This document shows positions 54,972 through 64,000 of a DNA stretch of 64,000 nt, one piece after another (within the stretch, counting starts at the first letter, position 1; each line of letters begins with the position of its first letter). Made by a program: the position numbers and the translations under genes. Origin of the DNA: Escherichia coli (lineage in GTDB: Bacteria > Pseudomonadota > Gammaproteobacteria > Enterobacterales > Enterobacteriaceae); assembly GCF_024700885.2 (NCBI RefSeq), contig NZ_CP117016.1; one strand, given 5' to 3'. The notes under the pieces were generated by a model. The model was not told where the DNA came from, ran no database searches, and worked only from the letters and a program-made list of their open reading frames with translations.

Positions 54972-55076
54972 ATGAGTGCAATAGAAAATTTCGATGCCCA
55001 TACGCCCATGATGCAGCAGTACCATTTTTCTATGGTTAACCTGTTGAAATTTAGCAATAAAGTGTTTGGTAAGTAG
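54972..55076 (+). pseudogene. mutS: mutS 5' fragment: first 17 codons of DNA mismatch repair protein MutS, then out-of-gene sequence and a stop
   Basis: ATGAGTGCAATAGAAAATTTCGATGCCCATACGCCCATGATGCAGCAGTA encodes MSAIENFDAHTPMMQQY (MutS N-terminus); after 55022 the sequence turns AT-rich and non-MutS (HFSMVNLLKFSNKVFGK-stop). Confidence 0.85.
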
Positions 55077-55365
55077 ACTCTGGTTTACTGATGGTATACA
55101 TAACATATAGTTATGTTAGCCAAGAACTCGAACTTAATGTGCCTAACTACAGAATGAAAAGTAACGTTGCGATACCGAAAAAATTTGGTGGCGTAAGGAA
55201 GGAATTGAAGTTCATTCATCTCCGTGAATATCTAAATCAATTTAATAACCAATTAAATAATTAGCTGGCTACAAATAACATTGATCTAATTCAATAATTT
55301 AGGATTATGTATTGGAGCTATTGAAAAAGTTGTGTTATAAAGGAAAAAAATCAAGGGAGATTAAA

Positions 55366-55635
55366 ATGTCTATCGATATCAATAAGTTAAAATCAAAATT
55401 AATTGAAGATTATAAATTCGCTGACGAGATTAGCGATGATGAAATCAATATAGTTTTAAGTGAAATACACAAAAAGGGTGCCTCAACACCAAAAGAAGTA
55501 GACGAAATTGTCTATACGGTATTAGAGGGTAAAAGGCATTATGCTTTCGAAAGTCTGGATACATCCAATACTACATCCCTTGCATTACAGTTAATTCAGG
55601 CGGCAAAGGTATATGCTCAAACACAAGGAAGATGA
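55366..55635 (+). CDS. hypothetical small acidic protein (89 aa), first gene of island cargo cluster
   Basis: SD agggaga 6 nt upstream of ATG 55366 (track ORF 55312..55635 is the same frame); no recognisable motif. Confidence 0.5.
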   Translation: MSIDINKLKSKLIEDYKFADEISDDEINIVLSEIHKKGASTPKEVDEIVYTVLEGKRHYAFESLDTSNTTSLALQLIQAAKVYAQTQGR

Positions 55636-56401
55636 AAGCATTCACATAGAGAGTAAAAAAAAACTTGATATGGAATTGCAGTTTTTAATAGATGAGATGC
55701 AAGCTGGGAAGGATAAAAACACTATTCTTCCACTGTTGAATAAACTGCAATTACAGTTTTCGATCTATGTTACTGATTTTGAAAATTTCATCGTTCGAGT
55801 TTCAGAAAATGGGTATTATCGTTCAAAAGGTGAAATAAAAGATGTTTTAATTAGCGTAGAAAATTTTTTAAATTCAAATGCAGTTGTTGCAGAAGCAATA
55901 AATACAGTTTCAAGCATATTCAATTTACCCCAATGTTATCAAGAAGGAAATTTCATAACAACTGCTCAAATAATATTAAGAACACATCAGAAAGAAAAAG
56001 CCGAGGAATTATCTCAAATTTATAAGGATAAAGGATTATCAACAAATGGCTTTGATAGTAAAGAAAAAATTTATTTGAACAGACACGGGTTTGATATGAC
56101 CAGATTTATTTCGTTTATATTAGGATTAATTTGTATACTTTATTTTTTATATGAATACAATATAGGCAATATAAACAATGGTATAAGTTGGTTTAATTAT
56201 AGATTGTTTGTTCCAACTGGATTAGGAGCAATAATATTTTCACTATTTCCGACAACCATGCAATTAAAATTTAGAGCAGGAGTGACAGCCACTGGAATTG
56301 TCGCATTTATTATATTTTTTTATACTGTCAATCCAGCAAAAGTTCCTGATTTTCAACTTCATAATATTGATAGCAATCAATCATCAGAAAAAAACAACTG
56401 A
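55613..56401 (+). CDS. hypothetical membrane-anchored protein (262 aa): about 170-aa soluble N-domain plus about 3 C-terminal TM helices
   Basis: ORF overlaps the upstream gene by 23 nt; hydrophobic segments FISFILGLICILYFLY, LGAIIFSLF, GIVAFIIFFYTV; alternative start ATG 55670. Confidence 0.6.
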   Translation: MLKHKEDESIHIESKKKLDMELQFLIDEMQAGKDKNTILPLLNKLQLQFSIYVTDFENFIVRVSENGYYRSKGEIKDVLISVENFLNSNAVVAEAINTVSSIFNLPQCYQEGNFITTAQIILRTHQKEKAEELSQIYKDKGLSTNGFDSKEKIYLNRHGFDMTRFISFILGLICILYFLYEYNIGNINNGISWFNYRLFVPTGLGAIIFSLFPTTMQLKFRAGVTATGIVAFIIFFYTVNPAKVPDFQLHNIDSNQSSEKNN

Positions 56402-56448
56402 TATCCAAGCGGATATCAGTTTAGATCTTAAAAGGAAAAAAATCCAAA

Positions 56449-56943
56449 GTGAAATTTATAGCATATGCGTTCTTGTCATTTACTATCGCACCAATAATTG
56501 GCATAATTATTGGAATTCCATTTGATAAATACTTACTCAAAAACTATCCAGTAGTTCTTTTCACAGTAATAATTATTTTCTCGTCCTTAGGAATCTACTC
56601 TCTTTACTTGTATAAAAAATCATACAAATATGTTAATGATGCTGTTTTAGCTATCTTTACTGGTTGGGTTGCATTGACATACTTACTCACGGGAGAAAAA
56701 ACAAGTGAGATAATCCCCTCGGAGAAACTAATTGAAACACACCCATTAATGTATTATCTAATAATATTAAAATTAACTATTGTTGCAAATGGGCTTTTGG
56801 CTAAGATATTTATTACATTAAACGAATTATATCATGCTCGTAAAGCTGAAAACAAAAGTGGGAAATATACTGATGTTTTAAAAATGACTATTTCCAGCAT
56901 TAAATCTTTTTTTAATTCTCAGAAGGACGGAGTCAAAAAGTAG
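56449..56943 (+). CDS. hypothetical integral membrane protein (164 aa, about 4 TM helices)
   Basis: GTG start; hydrophobic segments throughout; weak RBS. Confidence 0.5.
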   Translation: MKFIAYAFLSFTIAPIIGIIIGIPFDKYLLKNYPVVLFTVIIIFSSLGIYSLYLYKKSYKYVNDAVLAIFTGWVALTYLLTGEKTSEIIPSEKLIETHPLMYYLIILKLTIVANGLLAKIFITLNELYHARKAENKSGKYTDVLKMTISSIKSFFNSQKDGVKK

Positions 56944-57093
56944 AACAACCCCCATAGGAATTATTAATGCATTCATTGAAATAATAGCAGCAAAAACCAC
57001 TGCTAAATAATCATTCTTTGTGTCATAAAACAAAAACACAACAATATTTAAAAATAACACAAAGAGATAAAAAAGCATATCTTTAATATTCAT
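56878..57093 (-). CDS. hypothetical small hydrophobic protein (71 aa, 2 TM helices)
   Basis: Strong SD aaggagg 5 nt upstream of ATG (MNIKDMLFYLFVLFLNIVVFLF...); 3' end overlaps the convergent 56449..56943 ORF by 66 bp. Confidence 0.5.
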   Translation of the reverse strand: MNIKDMLFYLFVLFLNIVVFLFYDTKNDYLAVVFAAIISMNALIIPMGVVLLFDSVLLRIKKRFNAGNSHF

Positions 57094-57689
57094 AACAGCC
57101 TCCTTTTTTCTAATTTGATAATTTACAAATATCTTAATATAACGAAAAGTCAACTTACCCGATAAAAAATAGTTATTAGAACACCTTAAACTGATAATTA
57201 CATTAATAAATGCGAGTGATGAAATTTTTGAGTGAGATCATAAATTGTTGAGGCGTAAAGTTGTTGATATACCTGCTGTTCTGGTAAGTACTGCCATAAT
57301 AAAGGGCTGGTCTCCATCTGGTTTACTGCTTATATTTGTAGCTATGCTACTTAAGTGCTCTGTCGTTATATTGGGTATACATAATGCCCAAAAATCATTA
57401 TCGGATATTATTGAATCATCTAATAAGACGATGATTTTATTCACGAAAGATAATGCCAATGATGATGACGAAGCATTAACCAACCGTATTAATCAGATCA
57501 CAACCGAAGCTTTAACCAAACTCAGTAATAAAAAAGTTGATGCTGAAAAAACCTTGAATAAGCTCTAATGGTTGATTTTCATTGGTGTATCAGTCTGGTC
57601 TATGTTTGTTTTATATCAATTCAAAGATAACATAATCCCAGTTATTGAATTCGCCTATGAGCATATAAAGAGTTTCGTTACTTATTTAT

Positions 57690-57760
57690 TAAGCAAGGGC
57701 TAACTCATCGAAGCTCCGCTTCTTTGAGTTCCCTTGTTTTTCGCCCTTCGGTTGAAAAAG
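57690..57760. promoter_or_regulatory. candidate origin of transfer (oriT): nested inverted repeats upstream of mobC
   Basis: gcaagggctaactc ... gagttcccttg arms flanking the gaagc-tcc-gcttc hairpin, followed by cgcccttcgg; position matches oriT placement in mobC-mobA modules. Confidence 0.4.
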
Positions 57761-57784
57761 AAAGTCAAAGTCTAACCTAACTCA

Positions 57785-57812
57785 TTGACATGAATTGCAT
57801 TTCCACTATAAA
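57785..57812 (+). promoter_or_regulatory. sigma-70-like promoter for mobC-mobA
   Basis: -35 ttgaca (57785-57790), 16-nt spacer, -10 tataaa (57807-57812); strong SD aaaaaggag before mobC ATG. Confidence 0.5.
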
Positions 57813-57876: not shown

Positions 57877-58260
57877 ATGGGTAAAATAATAACATTGTCG
57901 TATACAAATAATTTTAAGCCTATTAGCGATAATAAATCTCAATCATTGCGAATACACTGTGTAAGTGTACGATTAAATAAAGAAGAGTTAGAGCTTCTCA
58001 ATGCAAGCCGTGGTGATAAACGCAAAGGTGAATGGCTTCGCATGGCATCACTTCAAAAGCTTCCTCCGACCATTCCTACAATCAATTTAGAAGTTTGGCA
58101 ATCATTGTCTGATATATCTCAAAAGCTAAACCGTCTAATAATCCACCTTGATACTAAAAGCAGTAATAGTGAACTGACGAAAACAGAGATCTTCGCTGTT
58201 AAAAAGCAGATTAAAGAGCTTCGCTCATGTCTTACAGGTTCTGATCCGTCCGTAAGGTAG
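57877..58260 (+). CDS. mobC: MobC-like relaxosome accessory protein
   Basis: 127 aa; segment VSVRLNKEELELLNASRGDKRKGEWLRMASL resembles the conserved MobC core (VRLxxEE...L...A); immediately upstream of the relaxase. Confidence 0.7.
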   Translation: MGKIITLSYTNNFKPISDNKSQSLRIHCVSVRLNKEELELLNASRGDKRKGEWLRMASLQKLPPTIPTINLEVWQSLSDISQKLNRLIIHLDTKSSNSELTKTEIFAVKKQIKELRSCLTGSDPSVR

Positions 58261-58268
58261 TTATTCGC

Positions 58269-59450
58269 ATGAAAGGAATGCAGAAGATCAAAAGGGGTAA
58301 GAGCTTCTCAGGTGTGGTTCTCTATGTGTTAAAGCCAGGCTCACACCATAGAACCGTTCCAGAAGTAATTGGTGGCAACATGACAGGTGATTGCTCACAA
58401 GAGTTAATCGACGAATTTAACCTTACGAAAGAGCTTCGCTCAGATGTGGCAAAACCTGTTTGGCACAATTCACTTCGATTACCCCAGGGAGAATCTCTTA
58501 CCAACGAACAATGGAAACGAATTGCTGACGATTACATGAAGCGAATGGGGTTCGGTGATACACACCTCCGTTGCTATGTTCTTCATGATGATCAGGCTGG
58601 TCAGCACATACACATTATTGCAAGTCGCATAGATCTCAATGGCGGGAAGCTCTACTTGGGTAGGAACGAAAACCTCATCAGCACCCGCATAATCAGTGAA
58701 CTCGAATTCGCTCATGGTCTGACAGTGACCAAGACAGCCTCTTCAATTGCACCAAAGCAACCGAAGCGGAAGAGAATCTCTCGCAACGAACAGATGCTAT
58801 CAGAACGAACTGGTGTTCCCTGCCCCAAGAAGTCCCTTCAACAGATCATAGATAAAAGTTTGGCAGATACACCTGACCTTTTAACTTTTATCAAGAGGCT
58901 GGAAGAAGCAGAAGTAGGCTGGACGGCGAATGTCGCAAGCACAGGTAAAATGAACGGGTTCTCTTTCGAATACACAGGAATAGCTTTCAAAGCTTCCCAG
59001 TTAGCCAAGAGCTATTCATGGGCAAATCTTCAAAAGCAGCTTAACTACAACCCGGATCACTTAGAAGCTCTGCGAAAGGATATACAGACCAAGGAAGTTC
59101 CTGCTCCTGTTCCTGTTCCTGTTCCTGTTCCTGTTCCTGTTCCTGTTCCTGTTCCTGCAGAACCGATAGCAAGAACGGCCGCCCAGATCGAAAGCATAAG
59201 TGAAAAAATTGCCGAACTGGAACTACGACTCAAAGAAGACAGAAGAAACGAAATCGTAGAAAAGATTCTTCAAAAGAATGCAGCCAAACAGCAAAAGCAT
59301 CTCAGGCTCACCGGCTGGATTCCCTTTTTACAACGGCTCATAGAGCTTCTCAGAAAATATGGAAGGAGCATCCTCCACAAGGTTCCTACAAACTTCTTAG
59401 AAGTCTATTCAACCCATCATCTGAAACCTACAAGAAAAATTCGTTTATAG
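58269..59450 (+). CDS. mobA: MobA/VirD2-type HUH relaxase (mobilisation nuclease)
   Basis: 393 aa; N-terminal Tyr region KSFSGVVLYVLK; three-His motif HDDQAGQHIHIIASRID; coiled-coil C-terminus. Confidence 0.85.
   Translation: MKGMQKIKRGKSFSGVVLYVLKPGSHHRTVPEVIGGNMTGDCSQELIDEFNLTKELRSDVAKPVWHNSLRLPQGESLTNEQWKRIADDYMKRMGFGDTHLRCYVLHDDQAGQHIHIIASRIDLNGGKLYLGRNENLISTRIISELEFAHGLTVTKTASSIAPKQPKRKRISRNEQMLSERTGVPCPKKSLQQIIDKSLADTPDLLTFIKRLEEAEVGWTANVASTGKMNGFSFEYTGIAFKASQLAKSYSWANLQKQLNYNPDHLEALRKDIQTKEVPAPVPVPVPVPVPVPVPVPAEPIARTAAQIESISEKIAELELRLKEDRRNEIVEKILQKNAAKQQKHLRLTGWIPFLQRLIELLRKYGRSILHKVPTNFLEVYSTHHLKPTRKIRL
59100..59159 (+). repeat. hexanucleotide tandem repeat: 8 perfect CCTGTT units (59106-59153) flanked by CCTGCT and CCTGCA
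   Basis: Encodes PAPVPVPVPVPVPVPVPVPA linker inside the relaxase. Confidence 0.95.
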
Positions 59451-59702
59451 ACAGCTAGTTATAAACACCTTTCGTAACATAACTTAATTACCTAGTGATA
59501 AATTTGTGTTTAGTCAAGAAAATATTGATCGTTATTACAGATCGATATCAATATTATGATAGCCTAAACCTATCGTAACTTAGACATCGATCGGTACAAG
59601 TGATTTTACTAAAGATAATTATTCATCGAGAATCCCTGAAAAGAGCCTGATGATTTTTAAGCAATAGCAGTATCAGGAACCGATTGTAAAAATGGAGTTA
59701 AT

Positions 59703-59981
59703 ATGAATAACGAAACCATTAAGTGTCCGTTCTGCTTCAAAGAGAGCCAGTTTGGTGTCCGTGTTTGTACCGGCTGTCATTCAACCATCAAATATGGCGA
59801 AGTTTCACCTTGGTTATCTTTACTAATAGGATTTATTTTATTAGCCATTGCTTACATCATACTTTATATAAGTCAAAGTTTTTTAGTAGCTCTCGTTATT
59901 CTTTTAACATTAATGATTTCTACAAGATTGTATATTCGTAAAAAATTTGCACACAGAGCAGTTTTCACTCACCAACATTAA
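59703..59981 (+). CDS. hypothetical zinc-ribbon membrane protein (92 aa)
   Basis: N-terminal CPFC...CTGC zinc-ribbon-like pair then two TM helices; SD tggag before ATG. Confidence 0.55.
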   Translation: MNNETIKCPFCFKESQFGVRVCTGCHSTIKYGEVSPWLSLLIGFILLAIAYIILYISQSFLVALVILLTLMISTRLYIRKKFAHRAVFTHQH

Positions 59982-59999
59982 GAACAAAAGGGATTTAAC

Positions 60000-60314
60000 A
60001 TGAAAGCATATGCTATGCTAACAATCATTCTTTCTACTTTTCTATTAACTGCATGTAATAGTGAACCAAGTCAAGATGATATCTACAATGCATTCAAAAG
60101 TGTTGTAGATAAAACCAATGCCAGCATGAAAGCTTTTGATTCAAGAGTGTCAGAAAAAGACCTTTTAAAAATCGATTATGTAAAAAAAGTAAGCTGTTCG
60201 GAAGAAGCAAACAATGTTTACAACTGCATTGTCGATGCTTCTATTAGCAACAATAAACAGACGAAACCAATTAAATTAGTTAAAGCTGATGGTGTCTGGA
60301 AAGAAGTTCAGTAG
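60000..60314 (+). CDS. hypothetical lipoprotein (104 aa)
   Basis: Signal peptide with lipobox LLTAC (MKAYAMLTIILSTFLLTACNSE); SD aaggga; terminator follows. Confidence 0.6.
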   Translation: MKAYAMLTIILSTFLLTACNSEPSQDDIYNAFKSVVDKTNASMKAFDSRVSEKDLLKIDYVKKVSCSEEANNVYNCIVDASISNNKQTKPIKLVKADGVWKEVQ

Positions 60315-60337: not shown

Positions 60338-60362
60338 TTAGCCCCTGCACAGGGGCTTTTTA
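60338..60362 (+). terminator. rho-independent terminator after the lipoprotein gene
   Basis: agcccctg-caca-ggggct hairpin followed by ttttta. Confidence 0.7.
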
Positions 60363-60366
60363 TTGC

Positions 60367-60801
60367 CTATAACCTGACGGCTCTTACGCGAACTTCATGG
60401 GTTAACTCTTTCTCGATTACTTTCATTTCATATTGTGCTCTGACAGTAGCATAGATTTCTTCTGCCATTTCTTGATTGCTATCGATATAGTTAACGAGAG
60501 AGTTTAGCTCCCTGATAACAGCTTCCTTATTGTTTAATCGTTGTAGTAGATTGCTTGTTAGGCTTTTGTATACAGAGCTAAACATTGCCATGACATTGTC
60601 TATGTTACGATTTGATTTGGAATAAATTTTTTTAGGATAGAAATATTTTAAATGGTATCCCACAAAAATTAAGTAAAGCTGATATGAAAAACTTTTATCA
60701 TGTGGCTGATATCGTTTTGATATGTATTTATCTACAATGATAACAAGCTGTTCTTCCAGTGTCATCACTGAATTATAATTGGTTTTGTTCATAAGTTGCA
60801 T
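60367..60801 (-). CDS. hypothetical protein (144 aa), last gene of recombinase-strand cluster
   Basis: ORF with ATG; no recognisable motif. Confidence 0.5.
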   Translation of the reverse strand: MQLMNKTNYNSVMTLEEQLVIIVDKYISKRYQPHDKSFSYQLYLIFVGYHLKYFYPKKIYSKSNRNIDNVMAMFSSVYKSLTSNLLQRLNNKEAVIRELNSLVNYIDSNQEMAEEIYATVRAQYEMKVIEKELTHEVRVRAVRL

Positions 60802-60894: not shown

Positions 60895-61278
60895 TTATTT
60901 TTTGTTTTTGGGAAAAATTTGATCTTCTCTAATACATTTACCATATGCAACCATTTGAAGATCTCTAACCATAAGTAGAAGCCTGTTATTTTCACTAACT
61001 AACCTCGAATTTTCTGTTTCTAATTTACTGATTTTATTCGAAGCATAGGCAAGACTTTGAGGACTTTTAATATGCTTAACAGTTTCACCTTTAGTTCTCT
61101 TTTTCTGCTGATATGCATAAGCTATTACTGTATGTCTTGAAAGAGCCTGTCTCGTTGGTTTTTTACCGAAATGATCCTCTACGGAATCACAAAGACTGAC
61201 CCAAGTTAAATCGCCTTCCCAGCCATTTATTTTATCGAGAACGAATTCAATATCTTCCTTGTTAAACTTTTTACTCAT
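60895..61278 (-). CDS. small coiled-coil protein downstream of the recombinases (TnpC-like position)
   Basis: Start at MSKKFNKEDIEF (track ORF starts 10 codons earlier); overlaps the upstream recombinase gene; C-terminal heptad-like region KISKLETENSRLVSENNRLLLMVRDLQ. Confidence 0.55.
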   Translation of the reverse strand: MSKKFNKEDIEFVLDKINGWEGDLTWVSLCDSVEDHFGKKPTRQALSRHTVIAYAYQQKKRTKGETVKHIKSPQSLAYASNKISKLETENSRLVSENNRLLLMVRDLQMVAYGKCIREDQIFPKNKK

Positions 61279-62917
61279 TATGTTCTCCTCTAAGATAATA
61301 ACTAACAATATGATTTATAATTTTACTAACTTCTTGGATTTCCTTTTCAACATAATTCGCTTTCTGTGAATTATATTGGCTTCTGTATAAATTATTCTTT
61401 TCTTCAAGCGTTTGTAAATGGTCTTTAATTTTGCAAATAATATCATCCTTACTCCCTCCACCTAAATCAGAAATCATTTCATCAGCAAATAATACTCTTC
61501 GTTCGTTTTGTCGCAACTCCTCCCAAGTTCGGTTATCATACACATTATTTTGTTCAACATTTTTCCTCCCTGACCAAAAAGCTATTTCTATATCAGAGAG
61601 CATAGCTCTTTGAGCAAGAGTGTTTAAAAGATGTCTTGGCTGATGACTACTAAAAATCTCTTTCATACCATTGGGTTGTAATGTTTTATGTCGTTGAAAA
61701 AAATTTAAGGTAGTTTCTTTTTCTGACCTTTTTTTAAAATCAGCAATAAACATCTTTTTATTTGCGGGTAAGACACAGAATAAATCAATTCCTTTCTTTA
61801 AATGTAATTGATCTTTATTTAGGATTAACAATCTATTACTAAGGTTTATAGATTTTGAAAATTCATCCCAAGATTTTGTTTTATCGCTATAATTAAAAAC
61901 TTCATTCCAAAATTCTTTTGCACTAAGAATCCCACTCTCTACCCTCATTAATATATTTTTAGTTTTAACATTGAAGCAGTCCATACAGTTTAGATTTAAA
62001 AGCTTATACAACTTTGTATGAAAATATCGTCCATTCTCATCAGTCTCTAAACTCTTATAAAACTCCAATTCTCCTTTTTCTCGTAGGGTAGCTATGCACC
62101 TTGCCGTTTGTGATAATACCCTTAATCTTTTAATGGCTAATTTTGCTATTGAATGCATATTCCTTGGAATCCACTTTATACTTTCACCATAGCCTTTTGC
62201 ACTATGATAACGAATGCCATAGGAGCCTTTCCCCTCTATGTCGTTCCCTTCAACTTCACAATCCACCTCAAGACTCAGGACTTCTGATATTCGTGTTGGA
62301 GCACAAAGAAGCAGTGCGATGATAGATGTTGTAAATATATCTCTTTGGCTTTTATCATTAGAACTAAAAACCCTACCAACAAGATCTATGACTTCCTCTT
62401 CTGGTAACTTATTTTTAATTTCTTTTTGCCCTATAAGATCTCTTACAGCTTTATTTCTAATTATTCTAAGCCTGGAGTTAAACTTACTTAATTTTGGATT
62501 TATTATGTTATTTATAGCTAACACTTCTAAAATATTCTTTAATGCCTTTTCAATAGCCCCCGCACGACTATTAGAATATTTCTTTTCTACTTGGAATAAA
62601 ATGTTGTTGATAACCTCAGAATTAATATTAACAATATGTGGTTCTACATTCAAAGTGAAGAATGAACTTTCCATAATTTTTATGACCGCCAAATAAAGTA
62701 ATGATTTACTGAGATTAGGGAAACACTCTCTATATATAATAACCTTTGATAATTGTTGAAAATGCGCTCCCATGTCTTTATCTTTTTTTATATGATTGTT
62801 ATTTTTAAATGAAACCCCTCTACCCCATGACAAATCATCCCAATTTATAATATTTTCTTTTTTTGCCTGTATCCTTACTTCATTAGCTAAAACATCATAA
62901 TTATTATAATGACTCAT
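61271..62917 (-). CDS. tyrosine recombinase, large (548 aa; Tn554 TnpB-like size and position)
   Basis: Catalytic region HQPRHLLNTLAQRAMLSDIEIAFWSGRKNVEQNNVYDNR (HxxR ... Y); box I candidate PTRISEVLSL; 14-nt overlap with upstream recombinase. Confidence 0.8.
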   Translation of the reverse strand: MSHYNNYDVLANEVRIQAKKENIINWDDLSWGRGVSFKNNNHIKKDKDMGAHFQQLSKVIIYRECFPNLSKSLLYLAVIKIMESSFFTLNVEPHIVNINSEVINNILFQVEKKYSNSRAGAIEKALKNILEVLAINNIINPKLSKFNSRLRIIRNKAVRDLIGQKEIKNKLPEEEVIDLVGRVFSSNDKSQRDIFTTSIIALLLCAPTRISEVLSLEVDCEVEGNDIEGKGSYGIRYHSAKGYGESIKWIPRNMHSIAKLAIKRLRVLSQTARCIATLREKGELEFYKSLETDENGRYFHTKLYKLLNLNCMDCFNVKTKNILMRVESGILSAKEFWNEVFNYSDKTKSWDEFSKSINLSNRLLILNKDQLHLKKGIDLFCVLPANKKMFIADFKKRSEKETTLNFFQRHKTLQPNGMKEIFSSHQPRHLLNTLAQRAMLSDIEIAFWSGRKNVEQNNVYDNRTWEELRQNERRVLFADEMISDLGGGSKDDIICKIKDHLQTLEEKNNLYRSQYNSQKANYVEKEIQEVSKIINHIVSYYLRGEHNE

Positions 62918-63881
62918 TATTCATGCCCTCCTTGTTGAGCAATTCGATTATTTTATTTATTTTACATTCTAACATTGTGAATAAGTCCGTTAGGATTTCA
63001 AAGTCTGCTTGCTTCGTATAATCTGCTATTAATACTCCAGTAAGCTTTTTTATGATTATCAAATCGTCAACCAATCTAAGGGTAATGTCGTCACTGTTTT
63101 TTAAAAATGAGGAAATATAAGGGCTTACTAACTCATTTATTGCCTGATCTATTCTGAATGAAAACTCTTCATTGTTTTTTGCATACGACAATACTGATTT
63201 CAAATTGCTATGATCTAAAGCTTTTGCTATCGTACCTAATCCATAACCTTTAAGTGCAAGCCTTGTGGCTAATGTAACCCTAAGTTGCCGAGAGTTAATC
63301 TTTTTATTTTTATCTTTACTTACCCTTTGGCAAATGGCCTGAACCCTACCGGTTATCCTCTTAGAACTCATATGCAAATTGAAGAAGTTATTTTCATATA
63401 ATTTATCAAGTTTGTAAGTCGAGTTAAAAAAACAAGGATCAATAAAGAGGGGTAAATTGTTTAATTCATCTTCACTTAATATATCGCCTACCTCACCCTG
63501 CACAAAAACCTTAACTACTGATTTAAGCTCTGATAGTGAATTGAACAAATTATCCCCTATACGCAATTCGGAAAAATCAGTTCTGAAACTATCTCCTTGT
63601 TTTAATCTGGGTATGTTTAAAAAATTACCATTTTCTTTGATATAAAGATCCTTCCTTTTTAATTGAGCGATCTGCATTGGTCTTCGCCCCGAATATATCA
63701 TCAGCATGACTAAAAGGTAGTCATTCATAGTCATATTTCCATCATTGTATTCCTTTGTCATGCCCCCAATTAGGTTCTTCAGTTCGTATTCAGATAATGG
63801 TCTTAAAGACTCTTTTCGCTCAATATATGCAGTTGTCTTGTTGGGTTTAGTTACTTTCCATTTTAAAATCAAATCCAGCAT
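62904..63881 (-). CDS. tyrosine recombinase, small (325 aa; Tn554 TnpA-like size and position)
   Basis: Box I YSGRRPMQIAQLKRKDL; box II/Tyr region LRVTLATRLALKGYGLGTIAKALDHSNLKSVLSYAKN. Confidence 0.8.
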   Translation of the reverse strand: MLDLILKWKVTKPNKTTAYIERKESLRPLSEYELKNLIGGMTKEYNDGNMTMNDYLLVMLMIYSGRRPMQIAQLKRKDLYIKENGNFLNIPRLKQGDSFRTDFSELRIGDNLFNSLSELKSVVKVFVQGEVGDILSEDELNNLPLFIDPCFFNSTYKLDKLYENNFFNLHMSSKRITGRVQAICQRVSKDKNKKINSRQLRVTLATRLALKGYGLGTIAKALDHSNLKSVLSYAKNNEEFSFRIDQAINELVSPYISSFLKNSDDITLRLVDDLIIIKKLTGVLIADYTKQADFEILTDLFTMLECKINKIIELLNKEGMNNESL

Positions 63882-64000
63882 TTCTTGATCTATGAATTCA
63901 TTATTTAACTCATAATGTTTTATTATAAAATACTTTAAACTTTCAACATGTGTATAGCTTATTTTATAATATGCATTGTAAAATCTATTTAGTAATCCAT

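Follow-up and report, generated by a model that had tools for sequence, protein, structure and literature searches.

Two small genes lie next to each other on the plus strand of the window, the 64,000-nucleotide stretch of Escherichia coli DNA analyzed here. The first, ORF A (59703..59981), encodes a 92-aa protein, hereafter ZnTM, from an ATG start with a GGAG 7 nt upstream; the second, ORF B (60000..60314), encodes a 104-aa lipoprotein precursor and is preceded by AAGGGA. The genes are 18 nt apart, each has its own Shine-Dalgarno sequence, and on the same strand they are followed by an intrinsic terminator at 60340..60366 (AGCCCCTG-CACA-CAGGGGCT with TTTTTATTG). The terminator probably acts bidirectionally, because it is also faced by a convergent gene on the minus strand (60367..60801) that ends at 60367 and encodes a conserved 144-aa backbone protein. 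This convergent gene has no Pfam or NCBIfam family match and shows 78-92% identity in sister elements with a dN/dS of 0.07. A MicA-like Rfam match over the terminator was sub-threshold and was rejected. Upstream, 252 nt separate ORF A from the stop codon of a relaxase gene (58269..59450, plus strand). The layout proposed in an earlier, sequence-only reading of this DNA, with the lipoprotein gene 18 bp downstream of the first gene, a terminator after the pair and the relaxase gene before it, is thereby borne out.

Homologues of ORF A form 103 clusters at 90% identity and those of ORF B 319 to 377, and pairwise dN/dS values are low (0.21 for ORF A, 0.11 for ORF B and 0.20 for the relaxase). Thus, both are genuine genes rather than chance open reading frames, and both are under purifying selection comparable in strength to that acting on the relaxase. 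Together, they constitute an operon of two genes that belongs to the conserved backbone of an element of the GInt/Tn6571 type.

The host island and its mobilization genes

The pair resides in a low-GC E. coli island inserted after ygbA, one end of which is occupied by a recombinase operon with a small fourth gene. On the minus strand of the window, this operon comprises a ginB-like tyrosine recombinase gene (62904..64000; PF00589, E 2e-13), the frame of which runs to the window edge; a 548-aa ginC-like gene (61271..62917), the homologue of which is named 'integrase' or 'DNA-binding protein' in sister loci; and a small ginD-like gene (60895..61308) in the position of the fourth GInt gene (PMC5385486, PMC10121019). 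The full copy of the element (L001) contains genes of 548, 456 (ginB-like) and 430 aa, the last being the third recombinase, together with a 127-aa CDS (ginD-like); the 548-aa ginC-like gene is split by IS1 (strain CFSAN061761). Three tyrosine-recombinase-type genes plus a small fourth one place the island in the GInt/Tn6571 type, an assignment made by gene architecture.

In addition to the recombinases, this GInt/Tn6571-type element contains a mobilization operon on the plus strand that opens with a MobC-like relaxosome accessory gene (57877..58260, 127 aa), directly 5' of the relaxase gene. The MobC-like protein has no Pfam match of its own; its gene is kept in sister elements, and in tblastn searches the small-plasmid matches to the relaxase region overlap genes named 'plasmid mobilization relaxosome protein MobC'. 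The 393-aa relaxase contains a MobA/VirD2 nuclease domain (PF03432, E 5.1e-27) and a (Pro-Val)8 linker (59106-59153), and gave sub-threshold NCBIfam matches to TraI_MobP and MobB. No T4SS genes were found either in the part of the element within the window or in the full L001 copy; the element combines a relaxase and a candidate oriT with the absence of such genes, and is thus a candidate integrative mobilizable element (IME).

No other non-coding part of the locus is as well conserved as the candidate oriT (59515..59640, assigned to no strand), a block that consists of a nested inverted repeat with 27-nt arms and promoter-like hexamers. Stretches of it are invariant in 8 elements that share 57-99% identity in their coding DNA. 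On Salmonella contig OX345050, a 67%-identical relaxase has the same block beside it. No covariation was seen in the block; therefore, we interpret it as a conserved DNA site and reject an RNA. Judging from these sequence features, it is a candidate oriT and/or a candidate operator-promoter of the ORF A-ORF B operon. The 3.6-kb Salmonella 'plasmid' that contains this relaxase and block resembles a fragment of an assembly more than a genuine plasmid and hence provides no basis for a decision on oriT.

Predicted architecture of the two proteins

ORF A is predicted to begin with a cytoplasmic Cys4 zinc ribbon, to enter the membrane as a hairpin of two helices and to end in a basic tail that includes a conserved strand (AVFT). 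The cysteines are arranged in two CxxC motifs, CPFC at residues 8-11 and CTGC at residues 22-25, both of which are kept in at least 90% of 24 homologues; the conserved positions of the alignment are C8, P9, F10, C11, C22, C25, Y31, G32 and F88. The AlphaFold2 model (pLDDT 82.5) contains short strands around both CxxC knuckles and helices at 36-57 and 60-81, and the Kyte-Doolittle hydrophobic windows span 31-49 and 50-68; all of this agrees with the description in the sequence-only reading of a 92-aa protein with CPFC, CTGC and two transmembrane helices. Cys4 zinc ribbons are recognized by two CxxC knuckles on β-hairpins, separated by approximately 10-20 residues, and ORF A fits this pattern; the predicted ribbon would be located on the cytoplasmic side because zinc sites of the Cys4 kind require that compartment.

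Substrates of signal peptidase II have an n-region that is basic, an h-region that is hydrophobic and, within approximately 15-35 residues of the start, a lipobox of the form [LVI][ASTVI][GAS]C. ORF B shows this pattern, which indicates a lipoprotein: the signal peptide ends in MKAYAMLTIILSTFLL-TAC19, with the lipobox L-T-A-C19, and Cys19 is invariant among 14 divergent homologues. Since the +2 residue is Asn and not Asp, the +2 rule predicts that the protein is probably sorted to the outer membrane. The same features predict just a lipid-anchored periplasmic protein, which falls short of the surface exposure assumed in the sequence-only reading. The 86-aa mature domain is modeled with high confidence (pLDDT 91.7) as a minimal cystatin/NTF2-like fold, in which one long helix packs on a 4-stranded antiparallel sheet. 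Two invariant cysteines, mature residues 48 and 58, lie on the neighboring strands 40-50 and 55-64, an arrangement that fits a periplasmic disulfide and makes such a bond likely in the model.

The statement of the earlier reading that neither protein is recognizable stood up to a wide range of searches. ORF A yielded nothing in Pfam at E <= 0.1, no significant match in NCBIfam, PHROG or PADLOC, and none when its profile was compared to PDB sequences; its homologues in one GInt (L010) and in phage AUS531phi matched Zn_ribbon_3 (E 5.7e-5) and DZR (E 8.7e-4), but in neither case was the gathering score reached. ORF B had no significant match in Pfam, NCBIfam, PHROG or PADLOC, and its profile retrieved just spurious designed-helix matches from the PDB sequences; a PHROG match to an Rz-like spanin is weak (E 0.0015) and confined to the signal peptide. 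An exhaustive HMMER search with ORF B among 1.84 billion proteins recovered 15 representatives at 50% identity; a profile search added few homologues, and a scan of genome contigs gave 7 loci. In the source annotations, PGAP names ORF B homologues 'cell wall-binding protein'. No peptidoglycan-binding domain (LysM, SPOR, OmpA_C or PG_binding) was found in ORF B with Pfam or NCBIfam, and the label is unsupported and probably wrong; the one conceivable connection is a weak fold similarity (Foldseek E 0.04) to PBP2a, in its NTF2-like N-terminal domain. VirB8-like T4SS proteins have an N-terminal transmembrane helix followed by a periplasmic NTF2-like domain of ~140 aa and are encoded in a T4SS locus, a combination that ORF B lacks. 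Cystatin, NTF2-like and VirB8-like α+β rolls are among the closest counterparts of ORF B, and the similarity to VirB8 is no better than that to cystatins or generic NTF2 proteins. Given that the element has no T4SS, a VirB7 or VirB8 role for ORF B is unlikely.

Pairing of ZnTM with lipoproteins across mobile elements

The pair is present in 13 of the 13 GInt-type loci examined, in environmental, food and clinical strains alike, and hence belongs to the backbone. The cargo, in contrast, varies between loci and includes unknown membrane proteins, ThiF/Mov34, HxsBD, TIR, a nucleotide-binding protein and RexAB; the defense cargo is located on the opposite side of the mob genes from the pair. The variants of ORF A are not tied to those of ORF B, nor either of them to the relaxase, but reassort independently, and one GInt without a relaxase (L010) also has a ZnTM-lipoprotein pair. 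Given this free reassortment, a specific complex between ORF A and ORF B is unlikely. In many GInt-type elements, a gene for a SEN1984/BamE-like lipoprotein is inserted between the two.

In every locus examined (~29), the ZnTM gene adjoins a lipoprotein gene, with gaps of 5-30 nt, and the partner lipoproteins fall into at least 6 families, between which no similarity could be detected. Besides the GInt-type elements, the settings include ROD21-like islands (SEN1981A/SEN1982), plasmids with DotA/TraY and pilin genes, and one Pseudomonas phage. In the TraY plasmids, the pair lies ~16 kb from traY, and another gene occupies the slot right after traY, which is the slot of excA in IncI plasmids. 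Of 5,426 complete E. coli genomes, ~500 contain a match to the start of the ORF A-type gene. Among 72,556 plasmids, no ORF B homologue was found, and ORF A-type proteins are encoded by only 49 plasmids, of which 48 are typed as non-mobilizable. The 50,697 phage genomes contain no match to ORF A or ORF B and a single one to other ZnTM types; the phage locus L033 is such a ZnTM-lipoprotein pair.

In the ROD21 island of S. Enteritidis and the EARL/CFT073 tcpC island, the SEN1981A-type proteins are homologues of ORF A (36-38% identical, with a near-identical zinc-ribbon N-terminus) that are likewise paired with a lipoprotein near a relaxase. These islands differ in that the partner is a SEN1982-family lipoprotein of 176-184 aa, the relaxase is MobQ, there is a single integrase and the gene order is reversed, with the lipoprotein first and ZnTM second. 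The module is found 0.1-3 kb from the MobQ relaxase, close to TraD and pilin genes (PMC3198454); unrelated cargo lies between the pair and mobQ, and the two are convergent. None of SEN1981A, SEN1982 and SEN1984 has a demonstrated function (PMC10655114). A remote homology of ORF B to SEN1982 is not supported: the hhalign probability of 76% extends over the signal peptide and first helix only, beyond which BLAST detected nothing significant. A similar LVKTxxGW motif stands at the C-terminus in both families.

Possible envelope exclusion and the competing explanations

By analogy with TraS/TraT of F or EexC/Sfx of IncC, we tentatively favor the possibility that the pair is a two-layer envelope exclusion module. 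We infer that both genes would be expressed in a cell already carrying the element and that their products would form a barrier to incoming DNA in different layers of the envelope. ORF A would insert in the inner membrane as a helical hairpin, with the zinc ribbon and the basic tail toward the cytoplasm, and from that side would prevent the translocation of DNA. ORF B would be exported, lipid-modified at Cys19 and folded in the periplasm as a small disulfide-stabilized cystatin/NTF2-like domain that, at the outer membrane or in the periplasm, may hinder mating-pair formation or the incoming transfer apparatus. This scheme follows the mode of action of F TraT/TraS and IncC Sfx/EexC.

Consistent with exclusion, the pair is part of the backbone and not of the cargo, with purifying selection about as strong as that on the relaxase; ZnTM is always paired with a lipoprotein (~29 loci), often on transfer-linked elements; the pair is nearly absent from the 50,697 phage genomes; and the predicted compartments differ, with a cytoplasmic zinc site in ORF A and a periplasmic disulfide in ORF B. 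Furthermore, exclusion pairs of an inner-membrane protein and an outer-membrane lipoprotein are known, with the TraS and Eex determinants being cytoplasmic, and orphan exclusion lipoproteins, such as Sfx, are carried by IMEs (PMC11493245). A mobilizable plasmid, ColE1, effects exclusion through an accessory mob gene, mbeD (PMC2831885). On the other side, the element has no cognate T4SS target, ORF B is absent from plasmids, ORF A-type proteins are few there and nearly all on non-mobilizable ones, the variants of both genes reassort independently, L010 and L033 carry a ZnTM-lipoprotein pair too, and in the TraY plasmids the expected excA slot holds another gene. ORF B has no plasmid homologue, in contrast to the Sfx proteins of IMEs, which are homologues of the Sfx of the helper plasmid. 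Exclusion genes are stated to lie beside the gene for their donor target, namely VirB6/TraG, TraN or TraY (PMC11493245), and no such neighbor is present here. No Pfam or NCBIfam family, those of TraT, TraS, TrbK, Eex and ExcA included, matched either protein at threshold. The suggestion of the earlier reading, that small lipoproteins next to transfer genes often act in entry, surface exclusion or immunity, is partly supported: the link to transfer genes is strengthened by the position in the backbone of a mobilizable island and by the recurrence of such pairs near relaxase and pilin genes, whereas no homology to known exclusion, superinfection-exclusion or immunity proteins came to light.

A broader version of the exclusion reading, which we consider doubtful, is that ZnTM with a swappable lipoprotein represents an unrecognized, widespread two-gene exclusion system, an 'envelope gatekeeper', of elements that hitch on conjugation, namely GInt-type IMEs, ROD21/EARL islands and TraY/pilin satellite plasmids. 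ZnTM would be the inner-membrane block and the lipoprotein would set the specificity group, and jointly they would decide entry independently of helper-encoded exclusion genes.

Rather unlikely, in our view, is a role in anti-phage superinfection exclusion, in which the lipoprotein would shield or obstruct a receptor, or else inhibit a periplasmic phage tail enzyme, and the hairpin would either prevent the injection of the genome or serve as a pore-forming effector. This explanation draws on T4 Imm/Sp and T5 Llp or Cor, small hairpin inner-membrane proteins or small lipoproteins that are encoded by mobile elements and block DNA entry. However, superinfection-exclusion genes are normally common in prophages, whereas ORF A and ORF B are missing from all 50,697 phage genomes and the phage-type ZnTM occurs in just one of them. 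Neither protein matches any PADLOC family, the defense cargo lies across the mob genes from the pair, and selection is overall purifying, not diversifying. As for resemblance to T4 Imm/Sp, T5 Llp and Cor, the sole match to Cor (phrog_1119, E 0.013) is to the signal peptide of the SEN1984-like lipoprotein; apart from the spanin match of the ORF B signal peptide, no PHROG of known function matches ORF A or ORF B, all PHROG matches of the two being at the signal-peptide level or at E > 1e-3.

We regard as unlikely that the pair is a donor-side accessory of mobilization, in which the cytoplasmic zinc ribbon of ORF A would tether relaxosome or relaxase to the inner membrane, near the coupling protein of the helper, and the lipoprotein would assist envelope passage or docking to the transfer apparatus of the helper. 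The L010 pair occurs without a relaxase, the ROD21-like pair is split from mobQ by unrelated cargo and is convergent with it, interchangeable lipoproteins are hard to fit to such a role, and the similarity of ORF B to VirB8 exceeds neither that to cystatins nor that to NTF2 proteins.

It is quite improbable that the pair is envelope cargo for fitness or host interaction, conferring serum or complement resistance (as TraT and lambda Bor do), or acting in envelope stress or virulence, with a benefit to the host and not to transfer. Small outer-membrane lipoproteins on mobile elements often have roles of this kind. Moreover, SEN1982 is transcribed in culture, and its transposon mutants are under-represented in mouse liver and spleen, according to Silva 2012 as cited in PMC6968874 and PMC10655114. 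However, that phenotype comes from a screen and pertains to a different lipoprotein family, and neither the constant pairing with a cytoplasm-facing zinc-ribbon protein nor the backbone position across environmental, food and clinical strains would be explained.

Least of all, and with very little probability, could the pair be an addiction or lysis module that stabilizes the element or releases DNA, with ORF A as a holin-like membrane-damaging protein and the lipoprotein as its partner or antidote: ORF A shares its size and N-in/C-in two-helix topology with class II holins and pinholins, the ROD21-type ZnTM has a glycine-rich second helix (GMSTGMAGA) and the ORF B signal peptide gave the weak spanin match, but no endolysin accompanies the pair, which resembles neither holins nor toxin-antitoxin systems in sequence, the lipoproteins and ZnTM reassort freely, unlike toxin-antidote pairs, and the module is stably carried in about 500 of the 5,426 complete E. 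coli genomes, as matched by the start of the ORF A-type gene.

GInts and ROD21-like defense-carrying islands are common in Enterobacterales, and their movement and competition are poorly understood. One GInt subfamily appears to possess a complete mobilization module and, like the ROD21-like islands, is seen to keep ZnTM beside a lipoprotein, which offers a two-gene target for studies of DNA-entry control. If the exclusion reading is true, it would add a new protein family to this function and a further case of exclusion by elements without their own transfer machinery; if the pair is a mobilization accessory or a phage barrier, a role would be assigned to families now annotated as 'hypothetical', 'membrane protein', 'SEN1982 family lipoprotein' or 'cell wall-binding protein'.

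We know of no exclusion protein with a zinc ribbon like that of ORF A. F TraT consists of ~244 aa. ORF B, with 104 aa, contrasts with Sfx, with ~286 aa (PMC11493245). No Pfam or NCBIfam match links F TraS/TraT and IncC EexC/Sfx to the pair, and the element has no VirB6, TraG or TraN gene. These systems share with it the arrangement of adjacent small genes on a transferable element, one for a protein of the inner membrane and the other for a lipoprotein of the outer membrane (PMC11493245). With the published GInts, the present island shares the three tandem tyrosine-recombinase-type genes with a small fourth gene, site-specific insertion and defense cargo (PMC5385486; PMC10121019). Those GInts were described without relaxases (no relaxase is mentioned in PMC5385486), whereas the present subfamily has, in addition, MobC and a relaxase, a candidate oriT, and ZnTM with the lipoprotein.

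The ORF A and ORF B genes and their products

Two small plus-strand genes follow the relaxase gene (58269..59450; PF03432, E 5e-27), which ends 252 nt upstream of the first of them. ORF A (59703..59981; start MNNETIKCPFCFKESQFGVRVCTGC) encodes a 92-aa protein with two CxxC knuckles followed by two hydrophobic helices, and ORF B (60000..60314), 18 nt further on, encodes a 104-aa protein whose lipoprotein signal peptide ends in L-T-A-C19. The genes are preceded by the Shine-Dalgarno sequences GGAG and AAGGGA, respectively, and a terminator consisting of a GC-rich hairpin and a T-run (60340-60366), located 3' of ORF B, faces a convergent 144-aa gene. The sequence-only reading had placed both ORFs at exactly these coordinates, and its descriptions of a CxxC pair with two transmembrane (TM) helices in ORF A, of a lipoprotein (the ORF B signal peptide is a typical one) and of the terminator are all borne out. 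Its remark that neither protein is recognisable also stands after the homology check that it proposed: neither has a significant match in Pfam, NCBIfam, PHROG, PADLOC or PDB sequences.

Both ORFs are real genes. Their homologs form 103 (ORF A) and 319 to 377 (ORF B) clusters at 90% identity, nearly all from Enterobacterales, and comparison of 12 to 14 sister loci gives a pairwise Nei-Gojobori dN/dS of 0.21 (ORF A) and 0.11 (ORF B), next to 0.20 for the relaxase and 0.07 to 0.09 for neighbouring backbone genes. The residues of ORF A conserved among homologs are C8-P-F-C11, E14, G18, V21, C22, C25, Y31-G32 and the C-terminal F88; in the AF2 model (pLDDT 82.5), helices 36-57 and 60-81, joined by a turn of 2 residues, form a hairpin between the short strands of the zinc ribbon and a last strand near the C-terminus (86-89). 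Given the basic tail (RKKFAHR) and the requirement for reduced cysteines, both termini are predicted to reside in the cytoplasm, with almost no periplasmic exposure.

The host island and its relatives

The GC content of the E. coli chromosome drops from 0.53 to 0.33 at ~54.7 kb, directly after ygbA, and strains CFSAN061761 and MLI114 share the region at 100% identity. In the annotated CFSAN061761 copy (L001), inserted after hyc-hyp-fhlA-ygbA, ~3 kb of small unknown genes precede a 127-aa gene, the relaxase, ORF A and ORF B; beyond ORF B lie two small minus-strand genes and three large tandem tyrosine-recombinase-type genes. This is the architecture of the GInts or Tn6571-family, islands with three integrases and a small fourth gene, which Hochhauser et al. 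described as defence carriers in E. coli hotspots (PMC5385486; PMC10121019). Because relaxases are not mentioned in the GInt paper (PMC5385486), we regard the present island as a member of a mobilizable GInt subfamily. At 15857-16554 of L001, an IS1 lies within a 548-aa gene of the recombinase operon, so that this otherwise identical copy is probably immobilised; its third recombinase is followed by genes for tRNA-Asp and tRNA-Val and by a second island, which encodes another integrase, an OLD-type nuclease and a UvrD helicase (the latter two Gabija-like).

The block mobC-relaxase-ORF A-ORF B-144 aa-recombinases is preserved in the E. coli sister elements, and the cargo upstream of mobC varies (ThiF/Mov34, HxsBD, a TIR protein, a nucleotide-binding protein); a metagenomic element with a ~34%-identical ORF B has the same backbone and RexAB cargo. 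Since ORF A, often uncalled by PGAP, is found in all these elements, the pair belongs to the backbone rather than to the cargo. The corresponding cargo region of the window (~54700-57700) contains five small ORFs of very high AT content (GC 0.26-0.35), and TM helices are predicted in four of them; the ORFs scanned, all except a 91-aa one on the minus strand, have no significant Pfam or PADLOC match. In view of the TIR, ThiF/Mov34, HxsBD or RexAB genes found in that position in sister elements, the region may encode a defence or membrane system not yet described. Within the relaxase, (CCTGTT)x8 at 59106-59153 encodes a (Pro-Val)8 linker, and in homologous relaxases the run is of PV or PA and differs in length, so that this hexanucleotide repeat looks length-variable.

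In many sister elements (L002 5171-5557, L004 5201-5587, L012-L014, L016 and L020), ORF A is separated from ORF B by the gene for a 128-aa SEN1984/BamE-like lipoprotein, and in L004 ORF B is shortened to 87 aa, lacking the second half of the helix region. L009, the most divergent mobilizable GInt examined, has no zinc-ribbon protein; a 93-aa two-TM protein devoid of Cys knuckles (8385-8666) is encoded 3' of its ORF B homolog, so that the pairing of a small inner-membrane hairpin with lipoproteins persists without the zinc ribbon.

Distribution and reassortment of the pair

A search of 72,556 plasmids and 50,697 phages found no match to ORF B; for ORF A it found 49 plasmids, 48 of them typed non-mobilizable, and no phage. 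The SEN1984-like lipoprotein (phrog_3135) is present in 7 temperate phages. By this distribution, the module is characteristic of integrative or satellite elements that rely on the conjugation machinery of others.

Some 500 of 5,426 complete E. coli genomes match the short DNA stretch coding for the ORF A zinc-ribbon N-terminus; the genes matched encode 91-aa homologs (36-38% identity) and belong to elements of quite different kinds. In CFT073, the gene for such a zinc-ribbon hairpin protein (ZnTM) lies in the tcpC island, immediately 3' of a 176-aa lipoprotein gene and in the vicinity of Macro, TIR, TcpC, MobQ relaxase, TraD and type IV pilin genes, and comparable arrangements occur in E. coli ATCC 43896, O111:NM strain 08-4377, isolate AHB18 and IMG/VR locus L027. 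The excisable island ROD21 of Salmonella Enteritidis encodes the membrane protein SEN1981A, the lipoprotein SEN1982 and the BamE-like lipoprotein SEN1984 next to the MobQ gene SEN1980 (PMC3198454; PMC10655114). No function has been demonstrated for the three (PMC10655114), and the only data on them are SEN1982 transcription and a colonisation defect in a transposon screen (PMC6968874). Plasmids of Klebsiella and Citrobacter (~31 kb) and one of Salmonella encode ZnTM homologs of ~30% identity, each 3' of a 95-99-aa lipoprotein gene, together with DotA/TraY and pilins. Plasmids of ~31 kb that bear the pair and are typed 'non-mobilizable' (L006, L028 (CP052179, K. pneumoniae) and L007 (CP082686, Salmonella)) encode, besides DotA/TraY and two pilins, H-NS, ParA, a DUF927 protein and ankyrin-repeat proteins; they resemble satellites of a transfer system of the IncI type (MPF_I).

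In every locus, by script and manual checks, a lipoprotein gene adjoins the ZnTM gene, usually on the same strand and at 5-30 nt. The partners in Enterobacterales fall into five families with no detectable similarity between their mature parts: ORF B (long and short forms), SEN1982, SEN1984/BamE-like, 95-99-aa and ~193-aa proteins; a sixth, a phage lipoprotein, was set apart by its SPOR domain, outside that comparison. Lipoproteins account for only a few percent of enterobacterial genes, so repeated adjacency to unrelated families is not due to chance. A given ZnTM subtype is not tied to one lipoprotein family: in L023 a ROD21-type ZnTM is paired with the 95-aa lipoprotein, and among GInt-type elements an ORF A of 38% identity may accompany an ORF B of 82%, or vice versa. 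Such free reassortment argues against a specific ORF A-ORF B complex, which we consider unlikely.

Spacer DNA, possible functions and known systems

The most conserved DNA of the locus (59515-59640) lies within the relaxase-ORF A spacer: an invariant nested inverted repeat with 27-nt arms, GTTATTACAGATCGAT...TGATAG...CTATC...ATCGATCGGTACAAG, followed 3' by ATTTTACTAAAG and TCATCGAGAATC(C/T)CT (the latter block also written TCATCGAGAATCCCTG). This block is retained in elements devoid of the conserved region upstream of mobC, and Salmonella contig OX345050 has it adjacent to a relaxase of 67% identity. The absence of covariation in the aligned elements suggests a DNA site, and TTTACT-17-GAGAAT falls within the invariant blocks; the block is a candidate oriT, an ORF A-B operator-promoter, or both. 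Were it the oriT, a plus-strand nick on the 3' side of the repeat would bring ORF A and ORF B into the recipient ahead of all other genes; speculatively, such early entry would fit a role in establishment or exclusion. A further block (57691-57800), situated upstream of the MobC-like gene and missing from two sister elements (L004, L005), contains a hairpin (AACTCATCGAAGC / GCTTCTTTGAGTT) followed by a T-run, with compensatory changes in both arms in L003 and L017 and a TTGACA-17-TATAAA promoter on its 3' side.

The present analysis establishes a recurrent, co-located and conserved pair, on elements that hitch on conjugation, of a predicted cytoplasm-facing zinc-ribbon hairpin protein and a predicted periplasmic lipid-anchored domain. 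By analogy, we tentatively propose that the two might hinder the entry of DNA, each in a different layer of the envelope. Among working systems, the nearest analogues are TraS (inner membrane) and TraT (outer-membrane lipoprotein) of F, and EexC and Sfx of IncC. [quoted passage not shown] This proposal is weakened by the lack of homology to known exclusion proteins (Pfam, NCBIfam, PHROG), of a target gene in the element and of a helper-plasmid homolog, which Sfx has and ORF A-B was not found to have, as well as by free reassortment and by the presence of the pair in one GInt devoid of a relaxase and in one phage. In that GInt (L010), the genes for a 98-aa ZnTM and a lipoprotein resembling ORF B are convergent. 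The sole phage among 50,697 with a ZnTM match, Pseudomonas phage AUS531phi (MN585195; L033, 2992-4145), has an unannotated 103-aa ZnTM ORF followed by the gene of a lipoprotein with a C-terminal SPOR domain, in a moron-like position between tail assembly genes K and I. The foremost rival reading, albeit an unlikely one, is superinfection exclusion of phages or defence against them. Still less probable is a donor-side mobilization accessory anchoring the relaxosome, and envelope or virulence fitness cargo appears somewhat less plausible again. That a two-helix hairpin protein and a lipoprotein constitute a holin-like addiction or lysis module is highly improbable. The remaining probability falls to some other function.

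Databases already contain both proteins under the label 'hypothetical', and the ROD21 relatives have been catalogued without study; in a limited search of the literature, the ZnTM-lipoprotein module was nowhere described as a unit. Every homology-based test of membership in known exclusion, superinfection-exclusion and defence families was negative, and the suggested likeness to TraS/TraT or EexC/Sfx is purely one of architecture and context. The module is not surprising in kind; it is a well-defined, widespread and testable two-gene unit on medically relevant islands.
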